Below, in pieces: positions 9,455-24,000 of a stretch of DNA of 24,000 nt (within the stretch, counting starts at the first letter, position 1; each line of letters starts with the position of its first letter). The DNA is from Georgenia sp. AZ-5. Lineage in GTDB: Bacteria > Actinomycetota > Actinomycetes > Actinomycetales > Actinomycetaceae. The stretch spans positions 2,795,629 through 2,819,628 of the forward strand of contig NZ_JBINOU010000001.1 in the NCBI RefSeq assembly GCF_043952095.1. Direction: 5' to 3'. A program made the position numbers and the translations under genes. The notes under the pieces are model-generated. The model made no database searches and had not been told where the DNA came from. It worked only from the letters and a program-made list of their open reading frames with translations.

Positions 9455-10030
9455 GTGCCTGACTTCCTGGCGAGCTGGCCGTTCTGGCTCGTCTTCGCGT
9501 TCCTGTACCTCGGCGCCACACTGCGCGGGCAGGCGATCTACTGGCTCGGGCGGGTCGTCACCGAGCAGACGCTGCGCCACTCCCACCCTGCCGCCGGGTG
9601 GCGGCTGCGCGCGTACCGGTGGCTGCAGGGGGAGGGCACCGCGCGCGGCATCGAGGCGCTGCGGCGGTGGGGGCTCGTGGCCGTGCCGTTCGCGTACCTC
9701 ACGGTGGGCTTTCAGTCCATGGTGATGGCCGGCGCCGGCGTGCTCCGCATCGGCTGGGTGCGGTTCTCGGCCGCCCAGGTCCCCGGCGCGCTGGCGTGGG
9801 CGGTCATCTACTCCACGATCGGCTTCGCGGTGTGGGAGGCGGCGCTGGCGGCGGCGGCCGGCTCCCCGCGGGGCATCGCCGGCATCGGTGCGCTCGCCGT
9901 GGTCATCGCCGCAACGGTCGTCGTGCACAGGCGGCGGCACGCCGCGGCGGTCTCGGGCCTGCCGGCCGGCCGGCAGGCCGCGCACGACGGCGCCGCCCGC
10001 ACCACGGGCACGGCCCGCCGCGACGGCTGA
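9455..10030 (+). CDS. DedA / VTT-domain family membrane protein (tentative)
   Basis: Hydrophobic protein with FLYLGATLRGQAIYWLGR, which fits the DedA-type G..R.....Y..GR motif, and about 4 TM segments. I prefer the in-frame GTG at 9455 (AGGGAG 7 nt upstream) over the track's GTG at 9407. The C-terminal about 40 aa are Arg/Ala-rich and low complexity. Confidence 0.5.
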   Translation: MPDFLASWPFWLVFAFLYLGATLRGQAIYWLGRVVTEQTLRHSHPAAGWRLRAYRWLQGEGTARGIEALRRWGLVAVPFAYLTVGFQSMVMAGAGVLRIGWVRFSAAQVPGALAWAVIYSTIGFAVWEAALAAAAGSPRGIAGIGALAVVIAATVVVHRRRHAAAVSGLPAGRQAAHDGAARTTGTARRDG

Positions 10031-10041
10031 CGTCGGCCTGT

Positions 10042-11355
10042 TCAGGCATCCGCGACGCCACAGAAGTCGACGATCGCGACGGCGAGCGTCTTGGTGCAGT
10101 CCAGGAGCCCGTCGATCTCGACGTACTCGTCCGGGGAGTGCGCGCCGCCCCCGGTGGGGCCGAACACCACGGCCGGTGTGTCGGTGTACAGATTGAAGAT
10201 CATCGAGTCGGTGGCGGCGTCCAGGCCGCCGACGGTCGTGGGCCGCCCCGCCCCGGCCGCGAAGGCCTCCAGGAGGCTGTTGACCACCGGATGGTGGGCG
10301 GGAACCTCCACCCCGTCGAACGGGCGCATGAGGGCGCGCTCCAGCCGCGGCGGGTGAGCGGCGAGGAAGGGGTCCGCGGCCACCCGGTCGAGCACGAACC
10401 GCTCGAACCGGGCGAGCATCGCCTCCCGGTCGTCCGCGGGCAGGACGTCCACCCAGAAGTGCAGCTCGGCGCTGGAGGGTGACGCCATCAGATTCGGGTC
10501 CCCCGCCCCCACGTACCAGACGGTGTCCGCCAGGGCCGGGCGCGGGCGCCTCGTCGTGTCGGAGAAGTAGGGGGTGGAGCTCAGCTCCGCCGCCCGGAGT
10601 CGCTCCCACGCGACGAGCGCCTCCTTGACCACGATCGCCTTGTCGAACGCGCTCACCCCCTGCCACCACCAGGCGTGGTGGGCGTTGATGCCGGGGACGG
10701 TCGCCTTGTAGGTCTGGCCGCCCTTCGTCGCGGCGACCACCTCGAGCCCGGTCGGCTCGGTCACGATCGCCGCGTCGGCGAGGTAGCCCTTGGCGCAGCA
10801 CGCGACGGTGCCGTTGTAGCCCCCGAGCTCTTCGTTGACGACACTCTCGACGACGACGTCGCCGCGCGGCCGGAGGCCGAGGTCGGCGAGGACCTCGACA
10901 GCGACGATCATGGCGGCGAGCCCGCCCTTCTGGTCGGCCGCTCCCCTGCCGTAGAGCCGTCCGCCGCTCACGACCCCGCCGTACGGGTCGTCCGCCCACA
11001 GCTGGCGCGGGCCCGCCGGCACGACGTCGCAGTGCCCGTTGAGGATGAGGGACCGCCCCCCGCCCGTCCCGCGGCGCACGCCCACCACGTTGGGCCGGTC
11101 GGTGTACTCCAGGCCCGGCCACCAGCCCGGGTGCTCCTGCACCCCGGGCACCGACCACGGCTCGAAGACGTCGACCTCGAGACCCGCCCGGGCGAGACGC
11201 TCCTCGATGAAGCGCTGCACGGGTCCTTCGTCCCCTCCCGGCGGGTGGGTCTCCGAGGGGATGCGGACGAGATCCGCGGCGAACCGGACGACGGACTCGC
11301 GTCTGCGGTCGACCTCGTCGACGATCTGCCTGACGGTGCGGGCGTCGAGCGCCAT
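10042..11355 (-). CDS. M20 family metallo-hydrolase (ArgE/DapE/ACY1-like amidohydrolase)
   Basis: 437 aa. M20 metal-ligand blocks LILNGHCDVVPAG, YGRGAADQKGGLAAMI, VNEELGG and GGGAHSPDEYVEI. ATG at 11355 lies 4 nt after the stop of the upstream SBP gene. Last gene of the operon. Confidence 0.8.
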   Translation of the reverse strand: MALDARTVRQIVDEVDRRRESVVRFAADLVRIPSETHPPGGDEGPVQRFIEERLARAGLEVDVFEPWSVPGVQEHPGWWPGLEYTDRPNVVGVRRGTGGGRSLILNGHCDVVPAGPRQLWADDPYGGVVSGGRLYGRGAADQKGGLAAMIVAVEVLADLGLRPRGDVVVESVVNEELGGYNGTVACCAKGYLADAAIVTEPTGLEVVAATKGGQTYKATVPGINAHHAWWWQGVSAFDKAIVVKEALVAWERLRAAELSSTPYFSDTTRRPRPALADTVWYVGAGDPNLMASPSSAELHFWVDVLPADDREAMLARFERFVLDRVAADPFLAAHPPRLERALMRPFDGVEVPAHHPVVNSLLEAFAAGAGRPTTVGGLDAATDSMIFNLYTDTPAVVFGPTGGGAHSPDEYVEIDGLLDCTKTLAVAIVDFCGVADA

Positions 11356-11359
11356 GAGG

Positions 11360-12511
11360 TCAGCCGCCTGCCGCGTCCCGGAGATCGGCGGGGAGCTCCT
11401 CGGCGAACTCGGCCTCCCAGCCCTCGGCCAGGTTCTCGGCGGTGGTGGGCACCGGGGCGGTCACCGCCATCTGAGGCGCCTCCTTGCCGAGGACGCCGTA
11501 CGCGGCCATCGTCGCAAGGTCGCGCCCGGTCTGGACGGCCGAGTTGGCGACCACGCCGACGACGTTGCCCCCGCCCACCATGTCGAGGGTCATGGTCTCG
11601 TCGAGATCGTTGGTCACGACGCGCACCTCGGGCCTGCCGGCGGCGCGCAGGGCGGACAGCACGCCGTCGGCGGCCGTCGCCCACGCGACGTAGAGGCCGC
11701 TGAGCTCGGGGTTCTGCGTGAGCATCGCCGAGGCGATGTCCTCGGTGCGCGCCGGATCGCTGAAGCCGGCCTCGGCGACGATCTCGATCTCCGGGTAGAG
11801 ATGGGCCAGCCAGTCCTTGAACGCCTGGTCGCGCTGGTTGGTGAACCAGAAGTCGGCGTCGTGGTAGATCCACCCGACCTCGCCCCGCCCGTCCAGGGCC
11901 TCTCCGAGCATCTCGGCCGCGCCCCTGCCGTACGCCGTGAGCTCGCCCGTGACGATGCCCACGATCTCCTCCCCGGCGGTGTAGCCGGCGGGCGGCGTGG
12001 TCAGCACCACGATGTGGACGCCCTGGTCCACAGCGGGACGGAAGGCCTCGGCGGCCGTGGTGGGGTCGACCGCGATGGTGACGATGATGTCCGGCGCGTT
12101 GGCCATCACGGTCTCGACGTTCGCCGCCTGCTGGGCGGCATCGAACTCGGCACTGGTGCTCGCGACCACCTCGATGCCCAGCTCGTCGAAGGACTCCCGC
12201 ACCCCGGACTCCACGGCCTGGATGAATGCGGAGTTCTCGTGCCAGACGAACGCCGCCGTGTAGCCACCCTCACGGACCTCCGCGACCTCCTCGTCGCTCA
12301 GGGTCAGCTCCGTCGAGGGAACCGGGACCTCACCGTTGGGGCCCCGGAACTCCAGGCTCGGCTCCTCGCCGGGGGCCGCCGTCGTGGCGGTCCCGGGCGG
12401 GCTGGCCTCGGTCGTAGGTGCACCGCCGCCTCCGCCGTCCGCGCAGGCCGCCAGTGCCGCCGCCGCGGCGACGACCAGCGCCGCCGCGCGGGGATTGCGT
12501 GGTCGACTCAT
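11360..12511 (-). CDS. Sugar-type (PBP type I, RbsB-like) ABC transporter substrate-binding lipoprotein, copy 1
   Basis: True start is ATG 12511 (MSRPRNPRAAALVVAAAAALAACADGGGG, lipobox LAAC). It overlaps the ATPase stop as ATGA (12508-12511). The 600-aa track ORF is an upstream read-through artefact. Periplasmic-binding-fold blocks: GIEVVASTSAEFDAAQQAANVE, PDIIVTIAVDP, HDADFWFTNQRDQAF, VRVVTNDL. Paralogous to 15553..16695. Confidence 0.8.
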   Translation of the reverse strand: MSRPRNPRAAALVVAAAAALAACADGGGGGAPTTEASPPGTATTAAPGEEPSLEFRGPNGEVPVPSTELTLSDEEVAEVREGGYTAAFVWHENSAFIQAVESGVRESFDELGIEVVASTSAEFDAAQQAANVETVMANAPDIIVTIAVDPTTAAEAFRPAVDQGVHIVVLTTPPAGYTAGEEIVGIVTGELTAYGRGAAEMLGEALDGRGEVGWIYHDADFWFTNQRDQAFKDWLAHLYPEIEIVAEAGFSDPARTEDIASAMLTQNPELSGLYVAWATAADGVLSALRAAGRPEVRVVTNDLDETMTLDMVGGGNVVGVVANSAVQTGRDLATMAAYGVLGKEAPQMAVTAPVPTTAENLAEGWEAEFAEELPADLRDAAGG

Positions 12512-13341
12512 GATGAGCGCTCCTCTGGTTCGCGTCGGTCCTTGGACCCGATCACGGGCGCGCGGTCGGCGCCCCCGACGATGTGGTCGACCAGCAGCCG
12601 CTCGCTGGTGCTGTCGACCGGGAGGTCGGCGACCTTCCGCCCGTGCCTCAGGACGACGGCCCGGTCGCAGACCTGGACGACGTGCTGCATGTTGTGGCTG
12701 ATCAGGATGACCGCCACCCCCTGGCTCCGCAGCGTGTCGATGAGCTCGAGGACGTGTGCCGACTGCTCCACCCCCAGCGCCGCGGCGGGTTCGTCCAGGA
12801 GCACGATGTGCCGGCCCCAGGCCACCGCCCGGCCGATGGCGATCGCCTGACGCTGCCCGCCCGAGAGGTAGGTGGTCTCGGTACGGGCGCCCGGGATACG
12901 GATCCCGAGCCCGGCGATGATCTCCTCGGACTCCCGGATCATGCGTCGCCTGTCGAGCCACCCCAGCCAGCCCCAGCCGGGCTTGACCAGCTCCCGCTTG
13001 AGGAAGAGGTTCGAGGCGACGTCGAGCGACTCCACCAGCCCCAGGTCCTGGTGGACCGTCTCGATCCCCAGCCGCTGCGCGGTGGCCGGGGAGTCGAGGG
13101 TCGTCTCCTGCCCGTCGACGACGATGCCCCCCGCGTCCGGCTGGTACACGCCGCTCAGGCACTTGACGAGCGTCGACTTGCCGGCGCCGTTGTCACCGAG
13201 CAGCCCGAGCACCTCGCCGGACCGCAGGGTGAGGGACACGTCGACGAGCGCCTGCACGCCACCGAAGGACTTGGACAGGCCCCGGACCTCGAGCACCACC
13301 TCGCCGCGCGTGGCCTTCCGTGCCTCCTGCCGGACGGTCAT
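12508..13341 (-). CDS. ABC transporter ATP-binding protein, single nucleotide-binding domain (FrcA-like half-size sugar ATPase)
   Basis: Start ATG 13341 (MTVRQEARKATRGEVVLEVRGLSKSFGG) overlaps the upstream stop as ATGA (13338-13341). Walker A GDNGAGKST, Q-loop VHQD, signature LSGGQRQAIAIGRA, Walker B IVLLDEPAAALG, H-loop ISHN. 277 aa means one NBD only. Confidence 0.9.
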   Translation of the reverse strand: MTVRQEARKATRGEVVLEVRGLSKSFGGVQALVDVSLTLRSGEVLGLLGDNGAGKSTLVKCLSGVYQPDAGGIVVDGQETTLDSPATAQRLGIETVHQDLGLVESLDVASNLFLKRELVKPGWGWLGWLDRRRMIRESEEIIAGLGIRIPGARTETTYLSGGQRQAIAIGRAVAWGRHIVLLDEPAAALGVEQSAHVLELIDTLRSQGVAVILISHNMQHVVQVCDRAVVLRHGRKVADLPVDSTSERLLVDHIVGGADRAPVIGSKDRREPEERSS

Positions 13342-14543
13342 GGCGCCTCCCCACCTCGTGCGGCGCGCCGCCCGTCGGTGGTCCACACGCCCTCGACGGC
13401 GACCTGCCCACGGGAGACGCCCGAGAGCGGCACCACGAAGGCCCGCGTGACGAACGCCTGGGCGCGGAAGCCGAAGATGACGGTGTCACCGGTGGCGATG
13501 CTCCGCTCCGAGGCGTCGAGCTGGCCGTAGTAGTCGATGGCCGACGGCGGGGGCAGCTGGGCCGCCACCGGGGGCCGGGCGAGGATCTCGTCCGCCGAGC
13601 CGCCCACGAGCGCACGGACCTGGTAGGGCTCGAAGACGGGGTCGATGTAGAGCCCGCCGCCGAACACGTACGCGCGAGAGCCGTAGAGGTGCGACACCTC
13701 GCTCAGGTAGAGCATGGCAGGGACCTCGGGAAGGTCCCGGACCGCGTGGAGCGGTGTCGTGCCGGTGAGGCCGTGCCCGGGCTCGACCTGGGTGGCTCCG
13801 GCGTCGGCCAGCGTGCGCAGCACGTCCGTCGACGTCGTCCCCGGCGCGTTCACCACGGGGCGCTCGTGGCCGGCGGCCTCCAGCTCGAGCCGCGCCCGCT
13901 CGAGGGTGCGCAGGTTCGGCGTGGGCAGCACGGCCTGCTCCCGCGGGTCGAACAGCAGTGCCGGGAAGGTCGTGACGCCGGCGAACCGGGCGTTCGGCGT
14001 CGCCCCGATCGCTCCGGCGACCCCGACGATCTCGTCGGCCGGGAACCCGCCCTCGTGGCCGGGGTAGAAGACGTCGCCTGGCGCGTGGATCCGGGCCACC
14101 AGGTCCTGCGCACGCCCCGCCCGGCCGGCGGCGGCGGCCGCCTCGCGGGCCTTGTCCATGGAGAACACGGTCCACACCGACGGGTGCGCGCGGGCGGCCT
14201 CGTCGGCCTCACCGCGCGGTACCTGCACCAGGTGCCCGAGGTGACCCAGGCGGTGCCCGGCGGCGTGCACGGCTCGGGCGCACGTCATGTCGACGGCCAC
14301 GAACCCGTCGGCGCCACCCCGGACGATCGCGTCGAGGGCGGGGGCGGGGCGACCGAGCTGCTTGGCCATGGCGAGGACCTCGAGGCCGAGCCCGTGAGCG
14401 CTCTGGCAGAAGGTCGCCGTGTTGGCCTCGATGGCGTCGAGGTCGAGCACGTAGCTGTTCGCCGGGATCATCCCGCGGCGGTGCAGGTCCGTCGCGGCCC
14501 GGAGAAGTGCCTGGTTGCGGCGGGACAGCGCCTCGAGGAACAC
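13338..14543 (-). CDS. YhfX-like fold-type III PLP-dependent enzyme (alanine-racemase N-terminal domain family; putative amino-acid racemase)
   Basis: 401 aa. N-terminus MFLEALSRRNQALLRAATDLHRRG, then AMAKQLGRP (candidate PLP-lysine), GHLGHLVQVP, TTFPALLFD, LPTPNLRTL, NAPGTTST, VEPGHGLTGTTP. These match my recollection of E. coli YhfX-type proteins. GTG start at 14543 with GGGGG SD, 11 nt after the permease stop. Confidence 0.7.
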   Translation of the reverse strand: MFLEALSRRNQALLRAATDLHRRGMIPANSYVLDLDAIEANTATFCQSAHGLGLEVLAMAKQLGRPAPALDAIVRGGADGFVAVDMTCARAVHAAGHRLGHLGHLVQVPRGEADEAARAHPSVWTVFSMDKAREAAAAAGRAGRAQDLVARIHAPGDVFYPGHEGGFPADEIVGVAGAIGATPNARFAGVTTFPALLFDPREQAVLPTPNLRTLERARLELEAAGHERPVVNAPGTTSTDVLRTLADAGATQVEPGHGLTGTTPLHAVRDLPEVPAMLYLSEVSHLYGSRAYVFGGGLYIDPVFEPYQVRALVGGSADEILARPPVAAQLPPPSAIDYYGQLDASERSIATGDTVIFGFRAQAFVTRAFVVPLSGVSRGQVAVEGVWTTDGRRAARGGEAP

Positions 14544-14554
14544 GGTTCACCCCC

Positions 14555-15526
14555 TCAGATCCTCTTCGGCTCACGCAGGCTCAGTGCCACCGCCAGCACG
14601 ATGATGGCCCCGCGCGCGATCATCTGGTCGGAGACGTCGAGCCCCATGAGGATCAGGCCGTTGTTGAGCATGCCGAGGATCAGGGAGCCGAAGAGCGCGC
14701 CGATCACGGTGCCGCGCCCGCCGAAGAGGTGCGTGCCCCCCACGACGACGGCGGCGATGACGGTCAGCAGGTCGGCCTCCCCCAGCGTGTAGCGCGCGCC
14801 GTGGAGGCGACCGGCGTAGAGCAGGCCGGCGAGGGCCGCGGTCATGGCGCTGATGACCAGGACCGCGACCCGGATGCGGCCCGTGCGGATGCCGACGTAC
14901 GCGGCCGCCCGGGGGGCGCCTCCCGTCGCCAGCGTGTGACGCCCGAAGCGCGTGTGCTTCAGGAAGACGTGCCCGACGACCACCGCCGCCGCGGTCCAGA
15001 TCAGCAGGCTCGAGATCGGCCCCACCGATCCGGATCCGAACCAGGAGGTGAAGGTGGCGTCCTGGACGGGTACCGCCTGGAGGTCGGTCACCTTGCGCGC
15101 GAGTCCCTGGCCGATCCCGAGGGTCCCGAGCGTGACGAGGAACGAAGGCACCCGGAGCCGGACGGTGACGAGGCCGTTGACCAGGCCCATGACGACCCCC
15201 ACGGCCAGGCCGCCCACGATGCCGGCGGCGAGCCCGTAGTCGCGCAGGGCGATCGCGCCCATGGTCGCGGACAGCGCCACGGTCGAGCCGATGGAGAGGT
15301 CGATCTCGCCGGCGCTGAGGGTGAAGGTCAGGCCGACGGCCATGACCGTGATCGGCGCGGTCTGCCGGACGATGGTGGTGAGGTTCCCGACGGTCAGGAA
15401 GCCGCGGTCGCTGAGGATGATCGCGAAGACCACGAGGATGATCAGGAACGCGAGGTAGACGATGTTGCGACCGAGCAGCGCCCCCACACGCTCGCCCAGC
15501 GTGGCCGGCGGCGACAGCGCGGTCAC
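14555..15526 (-). CDS. Sugar ABC transporter permease (RbsC/AraH-type, BPD_transp_2 family)
   Basis: 323 aa, about 9-10 TM helices. Typical blocks: FLTVGNLTTIVRQTAPITVMAVGLTFTLSAGEIDLSIGS, RFGRHTLATGG, AAYVGI. GTG start at 15526 with GGAGGTGAG SD. Confidence 0.85.
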   Translation of the reverse strand: MTALSPPATLGERVGALLGRNIVYLAFLIILVVFAIILSDRGFLTVGNLTTIVRQTAPITVMAVGLTFTLSAGEIDLSIGSTVALSATMGAIALRDYGLAAGIVGGLAVGVVMGLVNGLVTVRLRVPSFLVTLGTLGIGQGLARKVTDLQAVPVQDATFTSWFGSGSVGPISSLLIWTAAAVVVGHVFLKHTRFGRHTLATGGAPRAAAYVGIRTGRIRVAVLVISAMTAALAGLLYAGRLHGARYTLGEADLLTVIAAVVVGGTHLFGGRGTVIGALFGSLILGMLNNGLILMGLDVSDQMIARGAIIVLAVALSLREPKRI

Positions 15527-15552
15527 TCAGCTCACCTCCGGCGCTGCCGCGC

Positions 15553-16695
15553 TCACTGGTCCAGCGCCTGGCGGACCTCCGGGGGAAGTTCCCGGCTGAG
15601 GGACTCCTCCCAGGCCTCCGCGAGGTTCTCACGGGTCACGGTGATGAACCCGACGGTGCTGAACGGCGGCGCCTCCTTGTCCAGGAGCCCGTAAGCCCCG
15701 AGCGTCGCCATGGCGCGGCCCACCTGGTACGGGAGATCCGCGACGGTGCCGTGAACGGCGCCGCCCTGCGCCATGTCGAGGGCGTTGTTGACGCCGAGGT
15801 CGTGGGTGACGACGGCGATGTCCTCGCGGCCGGAGGCGCGGATGGCCTCGACGACGCCCTCCGCCGCGACGTCCCAGGCAACGTAGATGCCCTCGATGTC
15901 GGGGTGCTGGGAAATCATCGCCGAGGCCACGTCGAACGTCGCCCCTTCCTCGGTGAATCCTTTCGCGTCGACGATCACCAGCTCGGGATGGTTCTGCTCG
16001 ACGGCGGCCCGGAAGGCGTTGTCCCGGTTGTTGGTCACGAAGAAGTCGGCGTCGTGGAAGATCATGCCGACCTGTCCGCTGCCGCCGAGGGCGTCGCTCA
16101 TGAGGTCGGCGGCCGCCGCGCCCATGCCGAAGTGGTTGCCGGTGACGATGCCGACGTACTCCTCGCCGGGCCGGTAGCCCTCGGCGTGGTTGTCGGCGAG
16201 GACCAGCACGGTGCCGGAGTCGACGACCGGTCGGAACCCCTCCGCGCCCGAGACCGGGTCGACGATGAGGCTGAGGACGATGTCGGGCGCGAGGGCCATG
16301 GCCGTCTCGACGTCGTTGGCCTGGGTGGCGGCGTCGAACTGCGCGTCGGCCCTCGCGACGACCTCGATGCCGAGCTCGCTGAACCGGTCCGTCGCGCCGG
16401 CGTCGATGGCGTTGTACCACTCGCCTGCACCGGCCCACAGGTGGGCGGCCGTGTGACCGCCGGCCCGTATCCGCTCGATCTCCTCCTCGCTCAGCTGGAT
16501 CTCGTCGGCGGGAGTCGCCGGATTGCCGTAGGGGTCCATCTCCGTGCCGGACAGGTCGAGGTCGATCGGCTCGTCGAAGAAGGGGGTCGCCCCGCCGGCC
16601 TCGGGCTCGGCGGCGTCCTCGGCGCGGTCGCCGGTCGCGCAACCGGCTACGAGCAGCGCGAGCACGGACAATGCCGACAACCGATGAACCCGCAT
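15553..16695 (-). CDS. Sugar-type (PBP type I) ABC transporter substrate-binding lipoprotein, copy 2
   Basis: 380 aa. Signal peptide with lipobox LVAGC. Blocks collinear with copy 1: GIEVVARADAQFDAATQANDVE, PDIVLSLIVDP, HDADFFVTNNRDNAF, IAVVTHDL, GAYGLLDKEAP. First gene of the operon, with GGGGG SD upstream of ATG 16695. Confidence 0.8.
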   Translation of the reverse strand: MRVHRLSALSVLALLVAGCATGDRAEDAAEPEAGGATPFFDEPIDLDLSGTEMDPYGNPATPADEIQLSEEEIERIRAGGHTAAHLWAGAGEWYNAIDAGATDRFSELGIEVVARADAQFDAATQANDVETAMALAPDIVLSLIVDPVSGAEGFRPVVDSGTVLVLADNHAEGYRPGEEYVGIVTGNHFGMGAAAADLMSDALGGSGQVGMIFHDADFFVTNNRDNAFRAAVEQNHPELVIVDAKGFTEEGATFDVASAMISQHPDIEGIYVAWDVAAEGVVEAIRASGREDIAVVTHDLGVNNALDMAQGGAVHGTVADLPYQVGRAMATLGAYGLLDKEAPPFSTVGFITVTRENLAEAWEESLSRELPPEVRQALDQ

Positions 16696-16790
16696 GGTGA
16701 ACCCCCGACGTCGCAGGCTGGCTCAAGCGTCCTACCGCACCCGGTCACGGGCAAGCCCAGCATCCCGCCGCGAGGGAGCTCTCCGGCGCC

Positions 16791-17654
16791 TCAGGCCCCC
16801 GGCGCCGAGGGCCTGTCCACCGCCCCGCCGTAACGGCGGTCCCGGCGGGCGTAGATCTCGACCGCCCGCCACAGCGTGCGCCGGTCGACGTCGGGCCAGG
16901 CATCCTCGAGGAAGACCATCTCCGCGTACGCGGACTGCCAGAGCAGGAAGTTGCTGGTGCGCTGCTCCCCGCCGGTGCGCAGGAAGAGGTCGACGTCGGG
17001 CAGGTCGGGCTCGTCGAGGTACCGGGCGAGCGTCCTCTCGGAGACCTTCGCCGGGTCCAGGCGGCCGGCGGCGACCTCGCGAGCGATCTGCTGCGCGGCG
17101 TCGGCGATCTCCGCGCGCCCGCCGTAGTTCACGCACATGGTCAGCGTGCACACGGAATTGTGCTTCGTCTGCTCCTCGGCGACCTCCAGCTCGGAGATGA
17201 CCGAGCGCCACAGCCGCGGGCGGCGGCCCGCCCAGCGCACCCGGACCCCCCAGGCGTCCATCTGGTCCCGGCGGCGGTGGATGACGTCGCGGTTGAAGCC
17301 CATGAGGAAGCGCACCTCCTCCGGGGACCGCTTCCAGTTCTCCGTGGAGAAGGCGTAGGCCGACACGTGCGTGATGCCCAGCTCGATCGCGCCCGCCACC
17401 ACCTCGAGGAGGGCGGCCTCGCCGGCCTTGTGCCCCTCGACGCGCGGCAGGCCGCGGGCGTTGGCCCACCGGCCGTTGCCGTCCATGACGACGGCGACGT
17501 GCCGGGGCACGAACCGGCGGTCCATCAGCGGGGCCCGGGCGCCCGAGGGGTGCGGCGGCGGCGGGACGGGCCCGCGGCGCGTGGGGTCGGGCGCGGGGCC
17601 GGCCGGGAACACGGGCACGGCCGCGGCGGCGCGCGCGGCGACGTCGTCGCTCAT
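16791..17654 (-). CDS. uppS: Isoprenyl (cis-prenyl) diphosphate synthase, UppS family
   Basis: [45 protein letters not shown]. Start ATG 17654 ([10 protein letters not shown]...) overlaps the recO stop as ATGA (17651-17654). The 85 extra codons in the track ORF overlap recO. Confidence 0.9.
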
Positions 17655-18443: not shown

Positions 18444-20201
18444 TCAGCGCTCCGCGCGGTTGACGGCCGAGACGATCGCCTTGAAGGAGGCCGTCATCGT
18501 GGACGGGTCGATCCCCACGCCCCACAGCACCTGGCCGTCCACCTCGCACTCGAGGTAGGCCGCCGCGGTGGCGTCCCCGCCCTCGGAGAGGGCGTGCTCG
18601 GCGTAGTCGAGCACGTGCACCTGGACGCCCAGCTCGCGCAGCGCGTTGACGAACGCGTCGATCGGGCCGTTGCCCGTGGCCGCGACGACCTTCTCCTCGC
18701 CGCCGTCGACGATGGTCACCGTCAGGACGGCGTCGGTCCCCTCGCCGGCGGTGGTGACGGTGGTGCCCTTGAGGGAGAACCGGCCCCAGGGCTCCAGCCC
18801 CATGGCGGCGGTGTGGGGCAGGTACTCGTCGGCGAAGATCGACCAGAGCTTCTCGGCGTCGATCTCGCCGCCGTAGGCGTCGGTGTGCTTCTGCACGATG
18901 TTGGACAGCTCGATCTGCAACCGGCGCGGCAGGTCCAGGTTCCGGGTGGAGGACAGCAGGTAGGCGACCCCGCCCTTGCCCGACTGGGAGTTGACCCGGA
19001 CGACGGCCTCGTAGCTGCGGCCGACGTCCTTGGGGTCGATCGGCAGGTAGGGCAGCTCCCACACGACGGCGGTCTCGTCGCCGCCGGCCGCGGCGACCTT
19101 CTCGTCGCGCACGGCGAAGCCCTTCTTGATGGCGTCCTGGTGGGAGCCGGAGAAGGACGTGTACACCAGGTCCCCGCCGTAGGGGTGGCGCGGGTGGACG
19201 TCCATCTGCGTGCACGACTCCACGGTGCGGCGGACCGTGTCGATGTCGGAGAAGTCGATCATCGGGTCGATGCCCTGGCTGTACAGGTTCAGCCCCAGGG
19301 TGACCAGGTCGACGTTGCCGGTGCGCTCGCCCTGCCCGAACAGGCAGCCCTCGACGCGGTCGGCGCCGGCGAGCATCGCCAGCTCGGCGGCGGCCACGCC
19401 GGTGCCGCGGTCGTTGTGCGGGTGCACCGACAGGGCGATGTGCTCGCGGCGCGTCAGGTGCCGGCTCATCCACTCGATCTGGTCGGCGTAGACGTTGGGG
19501 GTGGCGCGCTCGACGGTGGCGGGGAGGTTGAGGATGATCTCGCGGGCGCCCTCGGGCTGCCAGACGTCCATGACAGCCTCGCAGACCTCCAGGGCGTAGT
19601 CGAGCTCGGTGTCGACGAAGATCTCCGGCGAGTACTGGTACCCGAAGACGGTGTCGTCCCCGAGCACCTTCTCGGCGTAGGCGACGACCTCGCGGGTGCC
19701 CGACACGGCGAGCTCGCGGGTGGCCTCGCGGTCGTTGTGGAAGACGATCTCCCGGAACACCGGGGCGGTGGCGTTGTACAGGTGCACCGTGGCGCGCGGG
19801 AAGCCGACCAGGGAGTCGATGGTGCGATGGATGAGCTCGGGCCGGGACTGGGTGAGCACGGAGACCGTGACGTCCTCGGGGACGGCGCCGTCCTCCACCA
19901 GGGAGCGGACGAAGTCGAAGTCGGTCTGCGAGGCGGCCGGGAAGCCGATCTCGATCTCCTTGTAGCCCATGCGGACGAGCAGGTCGAACATCCGCCGCTT
20001 GCGGTCCGCGTTCATGGGCTCGATCAGCGCCTGGTTGCCGTCACGCAGGTCGGTCGAGAGCCACCGGGGGGCGCGGGTGGTGCGGCGGGTGGGCCACTGC
20101 CGGTCGGGCAGGTCGACCGGGTTGGTGACCTGGAAGGGCCGGTACTTGGTGATCGGCATCCGGGAGGGCCGCTGTGCGTGGATGTGGTCCTGCGTCTTCA
20201 T
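18444..20201 (-). CDS. leuA: 2-isopropylmalate synthase (long actinobacterial type)
   Basis: 585 aa. [58 protein letters not shown], plus a C-terminal LeuA regulatory domain. ATG 20201 is preceded by GAGGAAG (20208-20214) at 6-nt spacing. Confidence 0.95.
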
Positions 20202-20491: not shown

Positions 20492-20600
20492 CCCACCGGC
20501 CGAGCCCCGGTGCTGCTCTGCCCTCATTCCTACCCGCCCGCACCGGCTCTTGTCGCCCCTCACGCATGGGGACAACTCCCCACCGGGTGCCCGATAGGCG

Positions 20601-22881
20601 TCAGTCCGCGGGGTCGCGCGGCCGGTGGCGCCGGAGCGAGCGGAGGGACAGCCGGGCCCGCCACCAGCGCCGGCGGCCGACCGCCGCCCCGATGGCGCCC
20701 AGCGTGGCGTCGACCGCGCTCCAGTAGCCGCGGGCGGCCGGCTCGCTGGGGTCCGCGGGCCCGAACACGGCGGCGTCGGCGCGCGCGGCGAGCTCGTCCG
20801 CGTCGGCCGCCAGCGCCCGCGCCAGCTCCGCGGCGTTCTCGCGGCGGGTGGCGGCGGGGGTGAGCGCGACACCGACGTCGACGGCGGCGTCCATGACCTC
20901 CGCCCACCCGCCGGCGATGCGCTCGGCGGGTGTGCCGGCCCTGCGGCGGCGCGCCGCCCGCCTGGCCTTGAGCAGCAGGACGGCGAGCAGGGGGGGCCAG
21001 GAGCACCAGCAGGCCACCGGTGACGGCCGCGGCCACCAGGACGGCCCGCGGCCAGGCGGCGTCCTGGTCCTCCTGGTCCTCGGTGTCGACGTCCTGCCGG
21101 TCCGTCGGCGGCACGTCCGGCGGCTCCTGCGCCGGGGGCGGGGGCTGCAGCACCTGGGGCTGGGGCCGGTTCTGCGGCGACGGGGACTCCCCCTGCCAGA
21201 TCCGGTCCTCGTCCGGCGTCGGGAAGAACGACACCCAGCCGTGCCCCTCGAACGGCACCTCGACCCAGGCGGTGACGTCGTCGCCGGTGAGCGCGACGTG
21301 CCCGCCCGCGCCGGGCGGCGCCTCGAGGCCCATCACCACCCGCGACGGGATCCCGACGGCCCGGAGCATCAGCGCCATCGCGGCGGCGTACTGCTCGTCG
21401 TCCCCGATCATCGCCTCCCCGCCGAGCAGCTCGTCCACCCGGGCGGCGCCGTGCCCGGGCAGCGACGGCGTCTCCCCCTCGAGCCCGTGGGAGAAGTACC
21501 CGAGCCGCAGGCCGGACTCGATCGCACGGATCTGGGTGAGCGGCGTGCGCGCCTGGGCCGTCAGCCGCGCGGCCGCGGCGGTGGCCACCTCCGGGAACAG
21601 CGCCTGGGGCTGGGCGACGTCGGCGACCGGGGCGCCCCCGAGCGCGGAGTCCGACGGCTCGGGGGGCAGCGCGGCGAGGAGCTCGTAGGAGTCCCCCGGG
21701 CGCAGGCCGGCGACGGCCAGCCCGGTCCCCGTGGTCCGGTTGACGTAGAGGGAGCCCTGCAGGTCGGCCGCGCGAGCCCCGGTGAAGTCGACGTCGTAGG
21801 GGCGGCCCACCATGGGCACCCACACGTCGGCGTACTCCCCGACCGTCACGGTCATCCGGCGCAGGCCCTCGCGCAGCTCGGGCTCCACCCGCTCGCCGAC
21901 CCGCACGAACCGGCCCGACGTCGCCTCGCCCGAGACGGACCAGGCCGTCCCGTCGTAGGCGTCGAGCACCGCCAGGCGCACCCGGGCGCCGCCGGGCAGC
22001 CCGTCGACGGCGAGCACCGTCTCGTCGCGGTGGTCCTTGACGTAGCCGCGGAACCCCGCCAGCGGGCTGGGGAAGTCCCGCGGGTCGGGCGGGGGCTCGA
22101 CGTGGTCGCGCAGCACGAACCGGGGCGAGGCGGGCGGGGCGAGGGCGACACCCGTCCCGGCGACCGCTCCGGCGAGCAGGAGGGCGACCGCCCCGCGCAG
22201 ACGGCCGGGGTGCATGCGGCCCGTGCGCCAGGTCCCCCACGCGAGCGCGCCGAGCGCCCCGGCGGCGCCGACGGGCACCGCGGCCTGCGCCTCGCTCGTG
22301 CCGAGCAGGATGGCCGCGGCGAGCGCCAGCGCCGGCGGGAGGAGCGCCCACGCGGGCCGGGAGGTGCGCAGGGCGATTGTCACCGCCGCCAGCGTGGCGA
22401 CGAAGGCGAGCAGGTAGGGCGCGGTGAGCACCCCGCCGTGGGCGCCGAGCGGCGGCAGCACGGTGACCAGCTGCTTCCAGGAGGTCACCGCCGCCTGGGC
22501 GACCGCGCCGAGCGTCGCCGGGGTGGGCACCGCTCCCCCGAGCGCGGTCGTCGGCGCGCCGAGGGCGGAGCAGGCCGCCAGCGTGACGACGGCGCCCGCC
22601 GCGACGGTCAGCGCGCCCCAGCCGAGCAGCGCGCCGACCACGGCGAGACCGGCGCCGAGCAGCGCCCCGCCGACGACGGCGGCCACCAGGTGGCCGGTGG
22701 CGAAGACGGGCCACAGCGGGAGGAGGGCCAGGAGCACCAGGGCGGTGAGCACGGCGACGTCGGCGCCGCGGGCGCGAAGCAGCCCGGCGAGCTCGGCGCG
22801 CCACGCGCCGGGCCGGCCGCGCGCGCCCTCGGCGCCCCGGCGCCGCGACCGCCGCCCCGGCTGAGCCGTCCGCCCGCTCAC
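20601..22881 (-). pseudogene. Transglutaminase-like membrane protein (N-terminal multi-TM, TGase-core fold, C-terminal TM plus DUF4129-like tail) interrupted by a frameshift in a C7 tract
   Basis: GTG 22881 overlaps the DUF58 stop as GTGA. The N-terminal part has at least 6 TM helices. TGase-core blocks: GDDEQYAAAMALMLRAVGIPSRVVMG and DVTAWVEVPFEGHGWVSFFPTP. A Pro/Gln/acidic linker follows. The reading frame then changes at CCCCCCC (minus strand; plus-strand G7 at 20990-20996). The upstream frame continues as Arg-rich junk to 20560. The +1 frame (track ORF 20601..21017) encodes a TM helix (LLAVLLL), KARRAARRRR, and a plausible DUF4129-like tail. Removing one C yields a continuous 759-aa protein. 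Confidence 0.75.
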
Positions 22882-24000
22882 CGCACGGCCCTGCGCAGCA
22901 GCCGGGGCAGCCTGTCGAGCTCGGCCACCGTCACCACGGTCAGCCCGCCGACGGACGCGACGCCCTCGTCCTGGACGTGCGCGCGGACGGCGACGGCGCG
23001 CAGGCCCGCGGGCAGGACGGCGCCGGCGGCACGCAGGTCCCGGACGGGGACGCCCGACCCGCAGACCAGGACGACGAGGGAGGCGTGGGGCAGGTCCCGC
23101 GAGACCGCGCGGGCCATCGCGACGAACCCGCGGGGCCCGCCGGCGGTCTCCAGGCGGGTCAGCGCGTCGAGCAGGGCGCCGCGGGAGACCGCCGGCAGGA
23201 CCTCGTGGGTGGTCAGCGCCGTGAGGTCCTTCTCCTCCAGGAACGACTCGAGCCCGAGGGAGGCGGCGGCCGAGACGGCGAGCTCGAGCTCCGCCGGGTC
23301 GCCGTAGTCCGCCTCGTGCCGGCTCAGGGCCACCACCACCTGGCTGCGCCGCGTCTCCTCGAACTGGCGGACCATGAGCGTGCCCGTGCGGGCGGAGCTG
23401 CGCCAGTGGACGTGGCGGCGGTCGTCGCCGGCGATGTACTCGCGCAGGGCGTGGAAGGACAGGTCGGAGGCGGTGATGTCGCTCGACGGGCGGCCCTCGA
23501 GGTCGTGGAGGAGCCCCGCGGCCCCGGAGGCCAGGCCCACGGTGCGCGGGTGGACGTAGAGCTCGTGGACCTGCGTCCACGACACCGCGCGGCGCACCAG
23601 CCCCAGCGGGTCCCCGCGCACCGACCGCACGGGCCCGACCGGGATGACGGCCCGGCGGGCCGTCGGGATCGCGAAGACCTCCTCGTGCTCGCCGCCGCGG
23701 GGCAGGCCGGGCAGGGGGAAGGCGACCTCCGCCGTCCCGACCGGCAGCTCCACGCGGGCCGGGAGGACGGGGCGGGCGGCGGTGTTGCGCACCACCACCG
23801 CGCCCACGGCGCGCTCCCCCACGACCACCCGCGCGGAGGACAGCCGCAGGTCGACGCCGTAGGGCTGGCGCCCCACGGTGAACACCAGGGCGGCCGCCAG
23901 CACGGCGAGGAGCGCCGCCCCAGCGACGACGAGCTCGGCCCAGCCCAGGTGCCGCCCGGCCACGGTCGCCGGCAGCCCGGCGGCGGCCGCCGCCCAGCCG
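22878..24000 (-). CDS. DUF58 domain protein (vWA-like; MoxR-associated), 5' end probably outside window
   Basis: Hallmark DUF58 block FHALREYIAGDDRRHVHWRSSARTGTLMVRQFEE. The frame stays open upstream of the GTG at 23963 to the window edge (GWAAAAAGLPAT-V-AGRHLGWAELVVAGAALL...). That stretch looks like the first of the two N-terminal TM helices typical of the family. TGA at 22880-22878. Confidence 0.85.
   Translation of the reverse strand, partial: GWAAAAAGLPATVAGRHLGWAELVVAGAALLAVLAAALVFTVGRQPYGVDLRLSSARVVVGERAVGAVVVRNTAARPVLPARVELPVGTAEVAFPLPGLPRGGEHEEVFAIPTARRAVIPVGPVRSVRGDPLGLVRRAVSWTQVHELYVHPRTVGLASGAAGLLHDLEGRPSSDITASDLSFHALREYIAGDDRRHVHWRSSARTGTLMVRQFEETRRSQVVVALSRHEADYGDPAELELAVSAAASLGLESFLEEKDLTALTTHEVLPAVSRGALLDALTRLETAGGPRGFVAMARAVSRDLPHASLVVLVCGSGVPVRDLRAAGAVLPAGLRAVAVRAHVQDEGVASVGGLTVVTVAELDRLPRLLRRAVR

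Follow-up and report, generated by a model that had tools for sequence, protein, structure and literature searches.

What does a bacterium take up through a sugar-type importer when the enzymes encoded with that importer are of amino-acid type? This question is raised by a block of six minus-strand genes in Georgenia sp. AZ-5, located at positions 10042-16695 of the 24,000-nucleotide stretch of contig NZ_JBINOU010000001.1 that we analysed (hereafter the window, in whose own numbering positions are given unless another locus is named). From its 5' end, the block encodes a substrate-binding protein (SBP2), a permease, a fold-type III pyridoxal phosphate (PLP) enzyme of the YhfX family, an ATP-binding cassette (ABC) ATPase, a second binding protein (SBP1) and a metallo-hydrolase of the M20 family. 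The transporter and the catabolic operon are of ordinary kinds; their combination is new, and at its centre stands an enzyme from a structurally solved family to which no function has been assigned. We found that binding protein, permease, YhfX-type enzyme and ATPase form, in this order, the core of a widespread, uncharacterised cluster family, and that the genes neighbouring this core favour a substrate of the amino-sugar class. Tentatively, and with slightly less than an even chance of being right, we propose that the operon imports an amino-sugar-type compound, both free and N-acylated, and degrades it toward glucosamine-6-phosphate catabolism.

The six-gene operon and its insertion site

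The GC content of the window (~74%) fills raw lists of open reading frames (ORFs) with spurious frames, and the six genes were picked out by a filter on GC content at third codon positions (GC3) combined with translation. All six ORFs are intact with their catalytic motifs preserved, and the five genes that were scored (SBP1 fell outside the scoring) have a host-like coding GC3 of 0.90-0.96. The coordinates, gene order and protein families given in a first-pass annotation of the window, made from the letters alone, were all confirmed, as was its description of one tightly packed unit: proceeding from SBP2 to the M20 gene, the junctions measure 26 nt, 11 nt, an ATGA in which the ATPase start codon overlaps the YhfX stop codon, a further ATGA overlap, and 4 nt. 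Shine-Dalgarno-like, purine-rich GGAGG or GGGGG runs lie upstream of most start codons. Pfam searches with the six proteins returned all of the anticipated domains, namely Peripla_BP_4 in each binding protein, BPD_transp_2, Ala_racemase_N together with YhfX-like_C, ABC_tran, and Peptidase_M20 together with M20_dimer. No regulator, kinase, isomerase, dehydrogenase or glycosidase is encoded in the six-gene block.

The transporter genes constitute a complete CUT2 set, in which type I binding proteins, a BPD_transp_2 permease and a sugar-type ABC ATPase are encoded together, in agreement with the carbohydrate class to which they had been assigned. The permease (14555-15526, 323 aa; BPD_transp_2 E = 1.3e-40) is best matched by the NCBIfam models AraH, GguB and RbsC, at 164-169 bits and in every case under the equivalog cut-off, and is 52-71% identical to the permeases of related loci. 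The ATPase (12508-13341, 277 aa; ABC_tran E = 7.8e-29) carries the Walker A, LSGG and Walker B motifs, and its match to the ~500-residue YtfR, RbsA and AraG models is confined to positions 1-240, the first half, so that the fused RbsA-type protein with two nucleotide-binding domains (~500 aa) is not the form found in the window. Both the permease and the single-domain ATPase are presumed to work as homodimers. Among related clusters, single-domain ATPases occur in the variants from Actinomycetota (the window included) and Alphaproteobacteria, and fused double-domain ATPases (~550 aa) in variants from Chloroflexota, Bacillota and Acidobacteriota (loci L005, L007, L009, L012, L026, L047 and L071 of our genome survey). 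A vitamin B6 transporter was also considered and rejected, its NCBIfam match being no better than those to other sugar ATPases and far under the cut-off.

The two binding proteins are lipoproteins of the periplasmic-binding-protein type I class and are paralogues with 48% identity. SBP2 (15553-16695, 380 aa; Peripla_BP_4 E = 1e-31; lipobox VAGC) is 72% identical to the permease-adjacent binding protein of an Anaerolineae locus (L030), and SBP1 (11360-12511, 383 aa; Peripla_BP_4 E = 6e-38; lipobox LAAC) has an additional weak match to Peripla_BP_6. Both are remote from every solved binder (best PDB E-values 2.5e-17 and, for SBP2, 4.7e-14), and against the NCBIfam equivalogs for ribose, allose and rhizopine they score 28-53 bits, where the cut-offs are 335-420. 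Aligning them with RbsB by hhalign (probability 97%; the RbsB sequence was entered by hand, and its ten contact residues agree with the published numbering), we found R141 and D215 kept and F15 still aromatic, with Q235 changed to N or D and N13, F16, D89, R90, F164 and N190 replaced, which leaves only 3/10 ribose-contact positions unchanged or with a similar residue. We considered and rejected a plain importer of ribose, allose or xylose, and the binding proteins are, as had been expected, not copies of a characterised binder of these sugars (at most 53 bits against cut-offs above 330). Rhizopine uptake was likewise rejected (45 bits against a cut-off of 420).

By sequence and by predicted structure, the PLP enzyme (13338-14543, 401 aa), whose gene separates those for permease and ATPase, is a clear member of the YhfX family. 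It matches YhfX-like_C (PF21279; 8e-23, 81.3 bits, cut-off 27) and Ala_racemase_N (PF01168; 1e-17, 64.9 bits, cut-off 24.1), and aligns over residues 1-389 with E. coli YhfX (PDB 4KBX; phmmer E = 5.4e-73, 38-39% identity). Its AlphaFold2 model (predicted local distance difference test score, pLDDT, of 93) was superposed by Foldseek on 4KBX with template modelling (TM) scores of 0.91/0.94 and a root-mean-square deviation of 2.2 Å. K61 (AMAKQLGR), the putative lysine of the PLP Schiff base, is invariant in 25 family sequences and aligns both with the corresponding lysine in E. coli YhfX and with the one in the HAK motif of D-threonine aldolase, which we take to be the PLP lysine of that enzyme. 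The best match to the window enzyme in the protein collection searched is 71% identical to it.

The first-pass annotation had described this enzyme as racemase-like and given it a stereo-inversion step, much as public annotations of the protein read "alanine racemase" or "predicted amino acid racemase". Racemisation turned out to be one option only. No NCBIfam model matches the enzyme, racemase models included, and a family profile searched against the PDB returned aldolases (4V15, E = 3.9e-5) and no racemase up to an E-value of 10. Beyond YhfX itself, the fold search returned 7YQA (2e-18) and, at a TM-score of ~0.66, 7DIB, 4V15 and 6QKB. Of the characterised relatives, D-threonine aldolases, beta-hydroxyaspartate aldolase and D-threo-3-hydroxyaspartate dehydratase come nearest by both profile and fold, and alanine racemases rank lower. 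Since these relatives are aldolases and a dehydratase rather than a racemase, the racemase label is not justified; epimerisation, elimination and aldol cleavage are all possible reactions. The Arg of the QGRCG motif of D-threonine aldolase aligns with His163 (GHEGG) in YhfX, and if that Arg is the counterpart of the carboxylate-binding Arg of racemases, the YhfX substrate may lack an alpha-carboxylate. We also take the EPGH motif of the enzyme to resemble the EPGR motif of decarboxylases, and ornithine and lysine racemases presumably share the COG3457 label with YhfX. In the literature we found no published characterisation of YhfX, of yhfS-W, of this cluster or of PLP-dependent amino-sugar epimerases, consistent with the earlier statement that the YhfX family lacks an established physiological substrate.

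The last gene (10042-11355, 437 aa) encodes an M20 metallo-hydrolase (Peptidase_M20 1.3e-31) of the ArgE/DapE deacylase subfamily, as had been suggested, with 222.5 bits against the DapE-ArgE subfamily model TIGR01910 (cut-off 217.6). It has the motifs of the two-metal site and of catalysis (H108-x-D, GRGAAD141QKG, NEE175/176, EPT with E200, and AHSPDE with H406) and matches a putative acetylornithine deacetylase, PDB 3PFO, at E = 6.6e-47. A housekeeping role as ArgE or DapE proper was rejected: all equivalog scores lie under the cut-off (e.g., 115 versus 298 and 138 versus 374), and the gene is part of a transporter operon, not of an arginine or lysine biosynthesis context. Orthologues with 56-61% identity occur in clusters L010, L014, L043 and L048, and two divergent M20 lineages, 25-33% identical, serve the cluster in different phyla. 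A GACGTCA element is present just 3' of the M20 stop codon in the window.

The operon interrupts a row of housekeeping genes. Beyond the M20 gene lie glyS, znuA, znuC, znuB, a Fur-family regulator gene (zur) and a DedA/VTT gene (Pfam-confirmed), the last of which is convergent and ends at 10030; beyond SBP2 lie uppS, whose stop codon is at 16791, recO and leuA. The block is absent from the uppS/dedA junction (L084, 13177-14737; L086, 14294-15671; L087, 12614-13994) of G. yuyongxinii (two assemblies), G. soli and Georgenia sp. TF02-10, where the convergent genes VTT, Fur, ABC-3, ABC_tran and ZnuA come straight after uppS. Because uppS adjoins dedA in these three other Georgenia species, the block is a lineage-specific and recent insertion, a point not made in the first-pass annotation. 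Its six genes make up a single operon, which Georgenia sp. AZ-5 acquired horizontally. Relative to the other Georgenia genomes, the inserted segment covers 10031-16790 (~6.8 kb). At its upstream junction, the 3' end of uppS aligns with G. yuyongxinii up to the minus-strand intergenic region at 16696-16790, and from there on similarity is lost; these 95 nt, which separate the stop codon of uppS from the start of SBP2, are the presumed promoter region of the block. The window LeuA (18444-20201) is 100% identical to that of Georgenia sp. AZ-5 and 82-92% identical to its next best matches, in other Georgenia species, and the nearest homologues of the block genes, in an Anaerolineae genome and metagenome contigs, are only 71-72% identical.

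No flanking direct or inverted repeats and no insertion-sequence remnants were found around the island, where the repeat search gave only the SBP1/SBP2 paralogy. A consensus scan of the window, which is a weak instrument in an actinobacterium of 74% GC, found no sigma-70-type promoter and no terminator, and Rfam found no structured RNA element in the window. In the empty uppS-dedA spacer of G. yuyongxinii (L084, ~14065-14125) we observed several copies of a short motif, GAGATGTCAACTC / GAGACGTCAAC. Elsewhere in the window and unrelated to the block, a gene for a TgpA-like transglutaminase membrane protein lies beside one for a DUF58 protein (20560-23963, minus strand, 77-81% GC). Georgenia sp. 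AZ-5, which has the island, and G. yuyongxinii, which lacks it at the same site, provide a natural with/without pair for experiments.

The cluster family and its neighbour genes

YhfX-type PLP enzymes have thousands of homologues. Taking one representative genome per species, we drew 578 loci that encode a YhfX relative; the gene counts given here are for the best 80 of the 578, based on tblastn maps of the six proteins and their recurrent neighbours. A permease gene is present in 60 of these 80 loci, an ATPase gene in 61, a binding-protein gene in 56, a ROK regulator gene in 48 and an M20 gene in 47, with YhfX the best-conserved member of the cluster. In 53/80 loci the YhfX gene has the permease gene as its immediate neighbour on one side and the ATPase gene on the other, an arrangement far beyond chance, which strongly bears out the co-localisation in other genomes that the first-pass annotation had proposed as a test. 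Carriers belong to at least six phyla and include Chloroflexota, Alphaproteobacteria (Mesorhizobium, Inquilinus, Hoeflea, Thalassospira and Ruegeria), Actinomycetota (Acidimicrobiia, Solirubrobacterales and Streptosporangium), Acidobacteriota, Spirochaetota and Bacillota; annotated examples are found on the megaplasmid of Ruegeria sp. TM1040 (TM1040_RS01745-RS01770) and on a Rhizobium plasmid, and Sinorhizobium fredii NGR234 is a further carrier.

The most frequent architecture is ROK - M20 - SBP (one or two) - permease - YhfX - ATPase. In the two closest relatives of the window enzyme the orders are SBP-ROK-permease-YhfX and ROK-permease-YhfX-ATPase-SBP-M20, and the window has this arrangement of its closest relatives minus the ROK gene. 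The remark that no regulator accompanies the operon is thus true of the window, but the cluster family normally has a ROK gene, located in the closest relatives beside the permease gene. One such regulator (L035, 5401-6615) was inspected by eye: it keeps the DxGGT and GTGIGxG nucleotide-binding motifs, has ExGF instead of ExGH and apparently lacks the zinc motif rich in cysteine. It could be an atypical ROK protein, perhaps active as a kinase.

The distribution of binding-protein and M20 genes points to a substructure within the family, which the first-pass annotation had not mentioned. Cluster variants without M20 always have a single binding protein, all two-SBP clusters have M20 (17/17; Fisher p = 0.02, uncorrected for phylogeny), and in the window, the P0006 contig and L014 a binding-protein gene and M20 follow the ATPase gene as a 3' tail. 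This association and the 3' tail suggest two modules, in which a core unit would handle the free-amine compound and an add-on of binding protein and M20 would capture and deacylate its N-acyl form. In the window, we propose SBP2 as the core binding protein and SBP1 with the M20 hydrolase as the add-on pair for the N-acylated substrate.

As to the class of substrate, the genes downstream of the ATPase are the most informative. A NagB-like gene occupies this position in 15/80 loci and a gene for a protein with two SIS domains (NagB-II/GlmS-like) in 14/80, and the two were never found in the same locus. For the two-SIS protein, the model of the NagB-II glucosamine-6-phosphate deaminase scores best and that of the isomerase half of GlmS second. 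NagB and NagB-II are unrelated families with one activity, the deamination of glucosamine-6-phosphate, and their interchange at a single operon position is the strongest clue for amino sugars. Moreover, in six Acidimicrobiia loci a short ROK protein without a DNA-binding domain, probably a sugar kinase, is encoded between the ATPase and NagB genes, and a locus from Thermoanaerobacterales (L009) has a kinase of the BadF/N-acetylglucosamine-kinase family within the operon. YhfX orthologues of Anaerolineae (63-64% identical; L001 3028-14079, L002 3623-18546, L003 8942-15326, and L006) are encoded without a CUT2 importer, among genes for a LacI regulator, a CUT1 oligosaccharide transporter, the glycoside hydrolases GH9, GH3 and GH4, a GH123-like protein and a BadF-type kinase. 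Among the substrate candidates that the first-pass annotation had listed, the amino-sugar class is therefore favoured, by the ROK proteins, the mutually exclusive NagB and NagB-II-like genes and the sugar kinases; its general idea of an amino compound holds up, and the stereo-inversion that it had envisaged after deacylation is one candidate step only.

A proposed route and the alternatives to it

From gene content, operon packing, the insertion, gene-order conservation, co-occurring families and fold relationships, we infer a substrate class, a division of labour between the binding proteins, an order of enzyme steps and a type of YhfX reaction, as follows. The two lipoproteins would capture a small amino-sugar-type compound, SBP2 the free amine and SBP1 the N-acyl form, and the CUT2-type transporter, with its permease homodimer and single-domain ATPase homodimer, would import it. 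The ArgE/DapE-type M20 hydrolase would strip the N-acyl group to leave a primary amine, with which the PLP of YhfX would form a Schiff base in order to convert the amine-bearing carbon. The simplest option for this conversion would be 2-epimerisation of a hexosamine, for example from a mannosamine-type to a glucosamine-type compound, and an alternative would be a metal-assisted beta-elimination or replacement of the substituent at position 3, such as the 3-O-substituent of muramic acid. The product would then be phosphorylated, and glucosamine-6-phosphate deaminase would yield fructose-6-phosphate and ammonia. Kinase, deaminase and ROK regulator are part of the cluster in many relatives, and in Georgenia sp. 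AZ-5 they would be encoded elsewhere in the genome. As a precedent from another pathway, the fold-type III PLP enzyme OngC acts on an amino-sugar derivative after N-deacetylation by OngB (PMC9537276).

That the YhfX family as a whole are converters of free amino sugars, whether hexosamine 2-epimerases or lyases for 3-O-substituents such as the lactyl ether of muramic acid, is a possibility that we regard as rather doubtful. Should it be true, it would represent a previously unrecognised entry into hexosamine catabolism, preceding phosphorylation, and would assign a function to the orphan family of E. coli YhfX. An enzyme gene within the transporter genes, as in the 53 loci above, is unusual and invites the idea of import-coupled conversion; the placement of YhfX would then reflect such coupling, with the enzyme possibly docked on the transporter.

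Several observations weigh against the amino-sugar proposal. What we propose for the cluster family draws on gene context and fold likeness. The window has no kinase, deaminase or regulator, a deaminase gene is present in only 29/80 loci, and the equivalog scores of these genes lie under the cut-offs (252 versus 326 bits for the NagB-like proteins, 266 versus 430 bits for the SIS proteins). The association of two binding proteins with M20 may in part reflect shared ancestry. Those relatives of the YhfX fold that have been characterised use alpha-amino acids as substrates, and to our knowledge the characterised M20 enzymes of ArgE/DapE type hydrolyse N-acyl alpha-amino acids and not N-acyl sugars. 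Glucosamine as such would make YhfX superfluous, and since no other member of the cluster is as well conserved as this enzyme, the imported amine is probably not glucosamine and a less common substrate must be assumed. Finally, YhfX orthologues with ~60% identity occur in a non-sugar context in uncultured Alphaproteobacteria (L011, 8643-12217; L024, L027, L031, L037, L041 and L054, around 10001), in the company of an MFS transporter, a hydantoinase/oxoprolinase-type gene (identified by eye), asparaginase II, an aminotransferase or a thiamine-diphosphate enzyme, which argues against a single simple answer on the substrate.

Could the amino sugar instead arrive as an acid? The operon would then import a 2-acylamino-2-deoxy-aldonate such as N-acetylglucosaminate along with its free form, M20 would deacylate it, and YhfX would act as an ammonia-lyase or aldolase on a beta-hydroxy amino acid to give, for example, 2-keto-3-deoxygluconate, in parallel to the oxidative chitin pathway. 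An acylamino-aldonate is chemically an N-acyl alpha-amino acid and suits the chemistry of an ArgE/DapE-type M20 enzyme; D-threonine aldolase and D-hydroxyaspartate dehydratase come closest to YhfX in fold; only common central enzymes would be required besides the window block; and the deacetylase OngB and the fold-type III deaminase OngC do exactly this on GlcNAc1A (PMC9537276). However, kdgK, eda and RidA genes were not noticed in the clusters (no search was aimed at them), the recurrent partners are NagB/NagB-II-like genes and sugar kinases, which act on aldose phosphates, and YhfX has His163 in place of the aldolase Arg. M20 enzymes are also generally L-specific, and glucosaminate is D at C2. 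We consider this route unlikely. Rather improbable as well, in our judgement, is a sugar-amino acid conjugate, such as an N-aminoacyl-hexosamine, a Heyns or Amadori product, an opine or a muramyl-amino acid, whose amide M20 would split, sending the sugar half to the kinase and NagB and leaving YhfX to racemise, aldol-cleave or dehydrate the freed amino acid. Such a substrate would account for sugar-type transport combined with amino-acid-type enzymes, and it draws on the pairing of YhfX with amidohydrolase or amidase genes in the E. coli-type yhf operon (in E. coli presumably adjoining the fructoselysine locus), on the asparaginase II and hydantoinase/oxoprolinase-type neighbours of some YhfX orthologues, and on a weak similarity of the SIS proteins to the FrlB deglycase. 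That similarity amounts to 31 bits, though, against 266 bits for NagB-II/GlmS; CUT2 binding proteins normally take ligands of monosaccharide size; and no fructosamine kinase or oxidase is present. Furthermore, amidase-free variants (L005, L007, L009, L012, L026 and L047) retain YhfX, which implies that YhfX acts on the imported compound and not solely on the product of M20.

The remaining alternatives do away with the amino sugar or with the function itself. That the system is not for sugars at all, and imports D- or N-acyl amino acids for an M20 aminoacylase and a YhfX that is a true racemase, would agree with the public racemase annotations, with the Ala_racemase_N domain of the PLP enzyme and with the weak Peripla_BP_6 match of SBP1. 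We give this very little credence, as the racemase models of NCBIfam give no match, both profile and fold searches place alanine racemases behind the aldolase/dehydratase clade, permease and ATPase plainly belong to the CUT2 sugar type, and the cluster partners are ROK regulators, NagB or SIS genes and sugar kinases. Quite improbable, too, is that the island is an incomplete fragment which, having lost its ROK and downstream genes after a recent acquisition, is silent or functionless in Georgenia sp. AZ-5. Its absence from three other Georgenia species, the missing ROK gene of its closest relatives, and the failure of the consensus scan to find a promoter or terminator are consistent with such a fate, but that scan was limited to the sigma-70 consensus, which has no match anywhere in this region of 74% GC, and loss of a repressor would give constitutive expression, not silence. 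The intact ORFs and catalytic motifs, the tightly coupled start and stop codons with their ribosome-binding sites, and the host-like GC3 of the five genes scored argue against decay.

The amino-sugar proposal, if true, would add a PLP-dependent step to amino-sugar catabolism and would define a nutrient of soil, marine, sponge-associated and anaerobic bacteria in at least six phyla. Either way, a structurally solved family of thousands of proteins, one of them in E. coli, acquires in this cluster a specific and testable setting: a sugar-type importer with an embedded enzyme gene, a deacylase and, in relatives, a glucosamine-6-phosphate branch.

Comparison with known systems

The importer resembles the CUT2 systems RbsABC, AlsBAC, AraFGH and FrcBCA in its type I Peripla_BP_4 binding proteins, BPD_transp_2 permease and sugar-type ATPase. 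It differs from them in having two paralogous binding proteins for one permease, an ATPase with a single nucleotide-binding domain where RbsA is a fused double protein, and an enzyme gene embedded between the permease and ATPase genes; its binding proteins also differ from the ribose binder at six of the ten ribose-contact positions.

With the canonical Nag/Nan route, the related clusters have in common a NagC-like ROK regulator, a ROK or BadF kinase and a NagB or NagB-II-like deaminase. In the window, Pfam found no NagA, NagB, kinase or NagC-type regulator. NagA, the deacetylase of the amidohydrolase superfamily, was seen in none of the related clusters, and NanE of the N-acetylmannosamine route is also lacking from the cluster. 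Deacylation would instead be carried out by an M20 enzyme on an unphosphorylated compound, and the PLP enzyme has no counterpart in the known routes.

At the level of single enzymes, YhfX shares with D-threonine aldolase and the hydroxyaspartate aldolase and dehydratase, all of them metal-dependent PLP enzymes of fold type III, an aligned PLP lysine, and the substrates of these enzymes carry a hydroxyl on the carbon beside the amine carbon, as amino sugars do. Identity to them is only 15-21%, however, the C-terminal domain cannot be aligned by sequence, and the QGRCG Arg of D-threonine aldolase is His in YhfX. The M20 hydrolase is similarly close to the ArgE/DapE deacylases (e.g., 3PFO) in its subfamily model and its intact two-metal-site motifs, but fails every ArgE and DapE equivalog cut-off.

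The E. coli yhfSTUVWX-type operon encodes a member of the same PF21279 and PF01168 family as the window enzyme, and in both cases the YhfX gene accompanies genes for a transporter and for an amide hydrolase, metal-dependent or other. The E. coli-type operon has, however, a YhfT/DUF2620 membrane system, a PRD protein, a phosphotriesterase-homology protein, a class-V-fold PLP enzyme and a phosphopentomutase-like protein, and lacks the ABC importer and M20 gene of the window block as well as a ROK regulator. No function can be transferred from it to the block. We observed that this type of operon is kept in Bacillota and Fusobacteriota, on a B. thuringiensis plasmid (L088, 3840-9158) and a Cetobacterium somerae plasmid (L089, 1994-10357), with genes for the PRD protein, DUF2620, YhfT, phosphotriesterase homologue, class-V-fold PLP enzyme and YhfX, to which the Cetobacterium locus adds a YhfZ regulator, a phosphopentomutase-like protein and an extra amidase.

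The Ong pathway of Pseudoalteromonas, whose cluster includes the D-aminoacylase OngB, a sodium-solute symporter, KdgK and RidA (PMC9537276), is built from other parts. Where OngB is a D-aminoacylase, the block has an M20 enzyme; OngC belongs to a clade of its own; and in place of the symporter, KdgK and RidA, there is an ABC importer, accompanied in relatives by NagB/SIS genes and ROK/BadF kinases. An OngB-type D-aminoacylase, OngC, KdgK, RidA and a sodium-solute symporter were all absent from the window by Pfam and were not noticed among the conserved neighbours. The logic common to both systems is import, followed by N-deacetylation and by the action of a fold-type III PLP enzyme on the freed amine.

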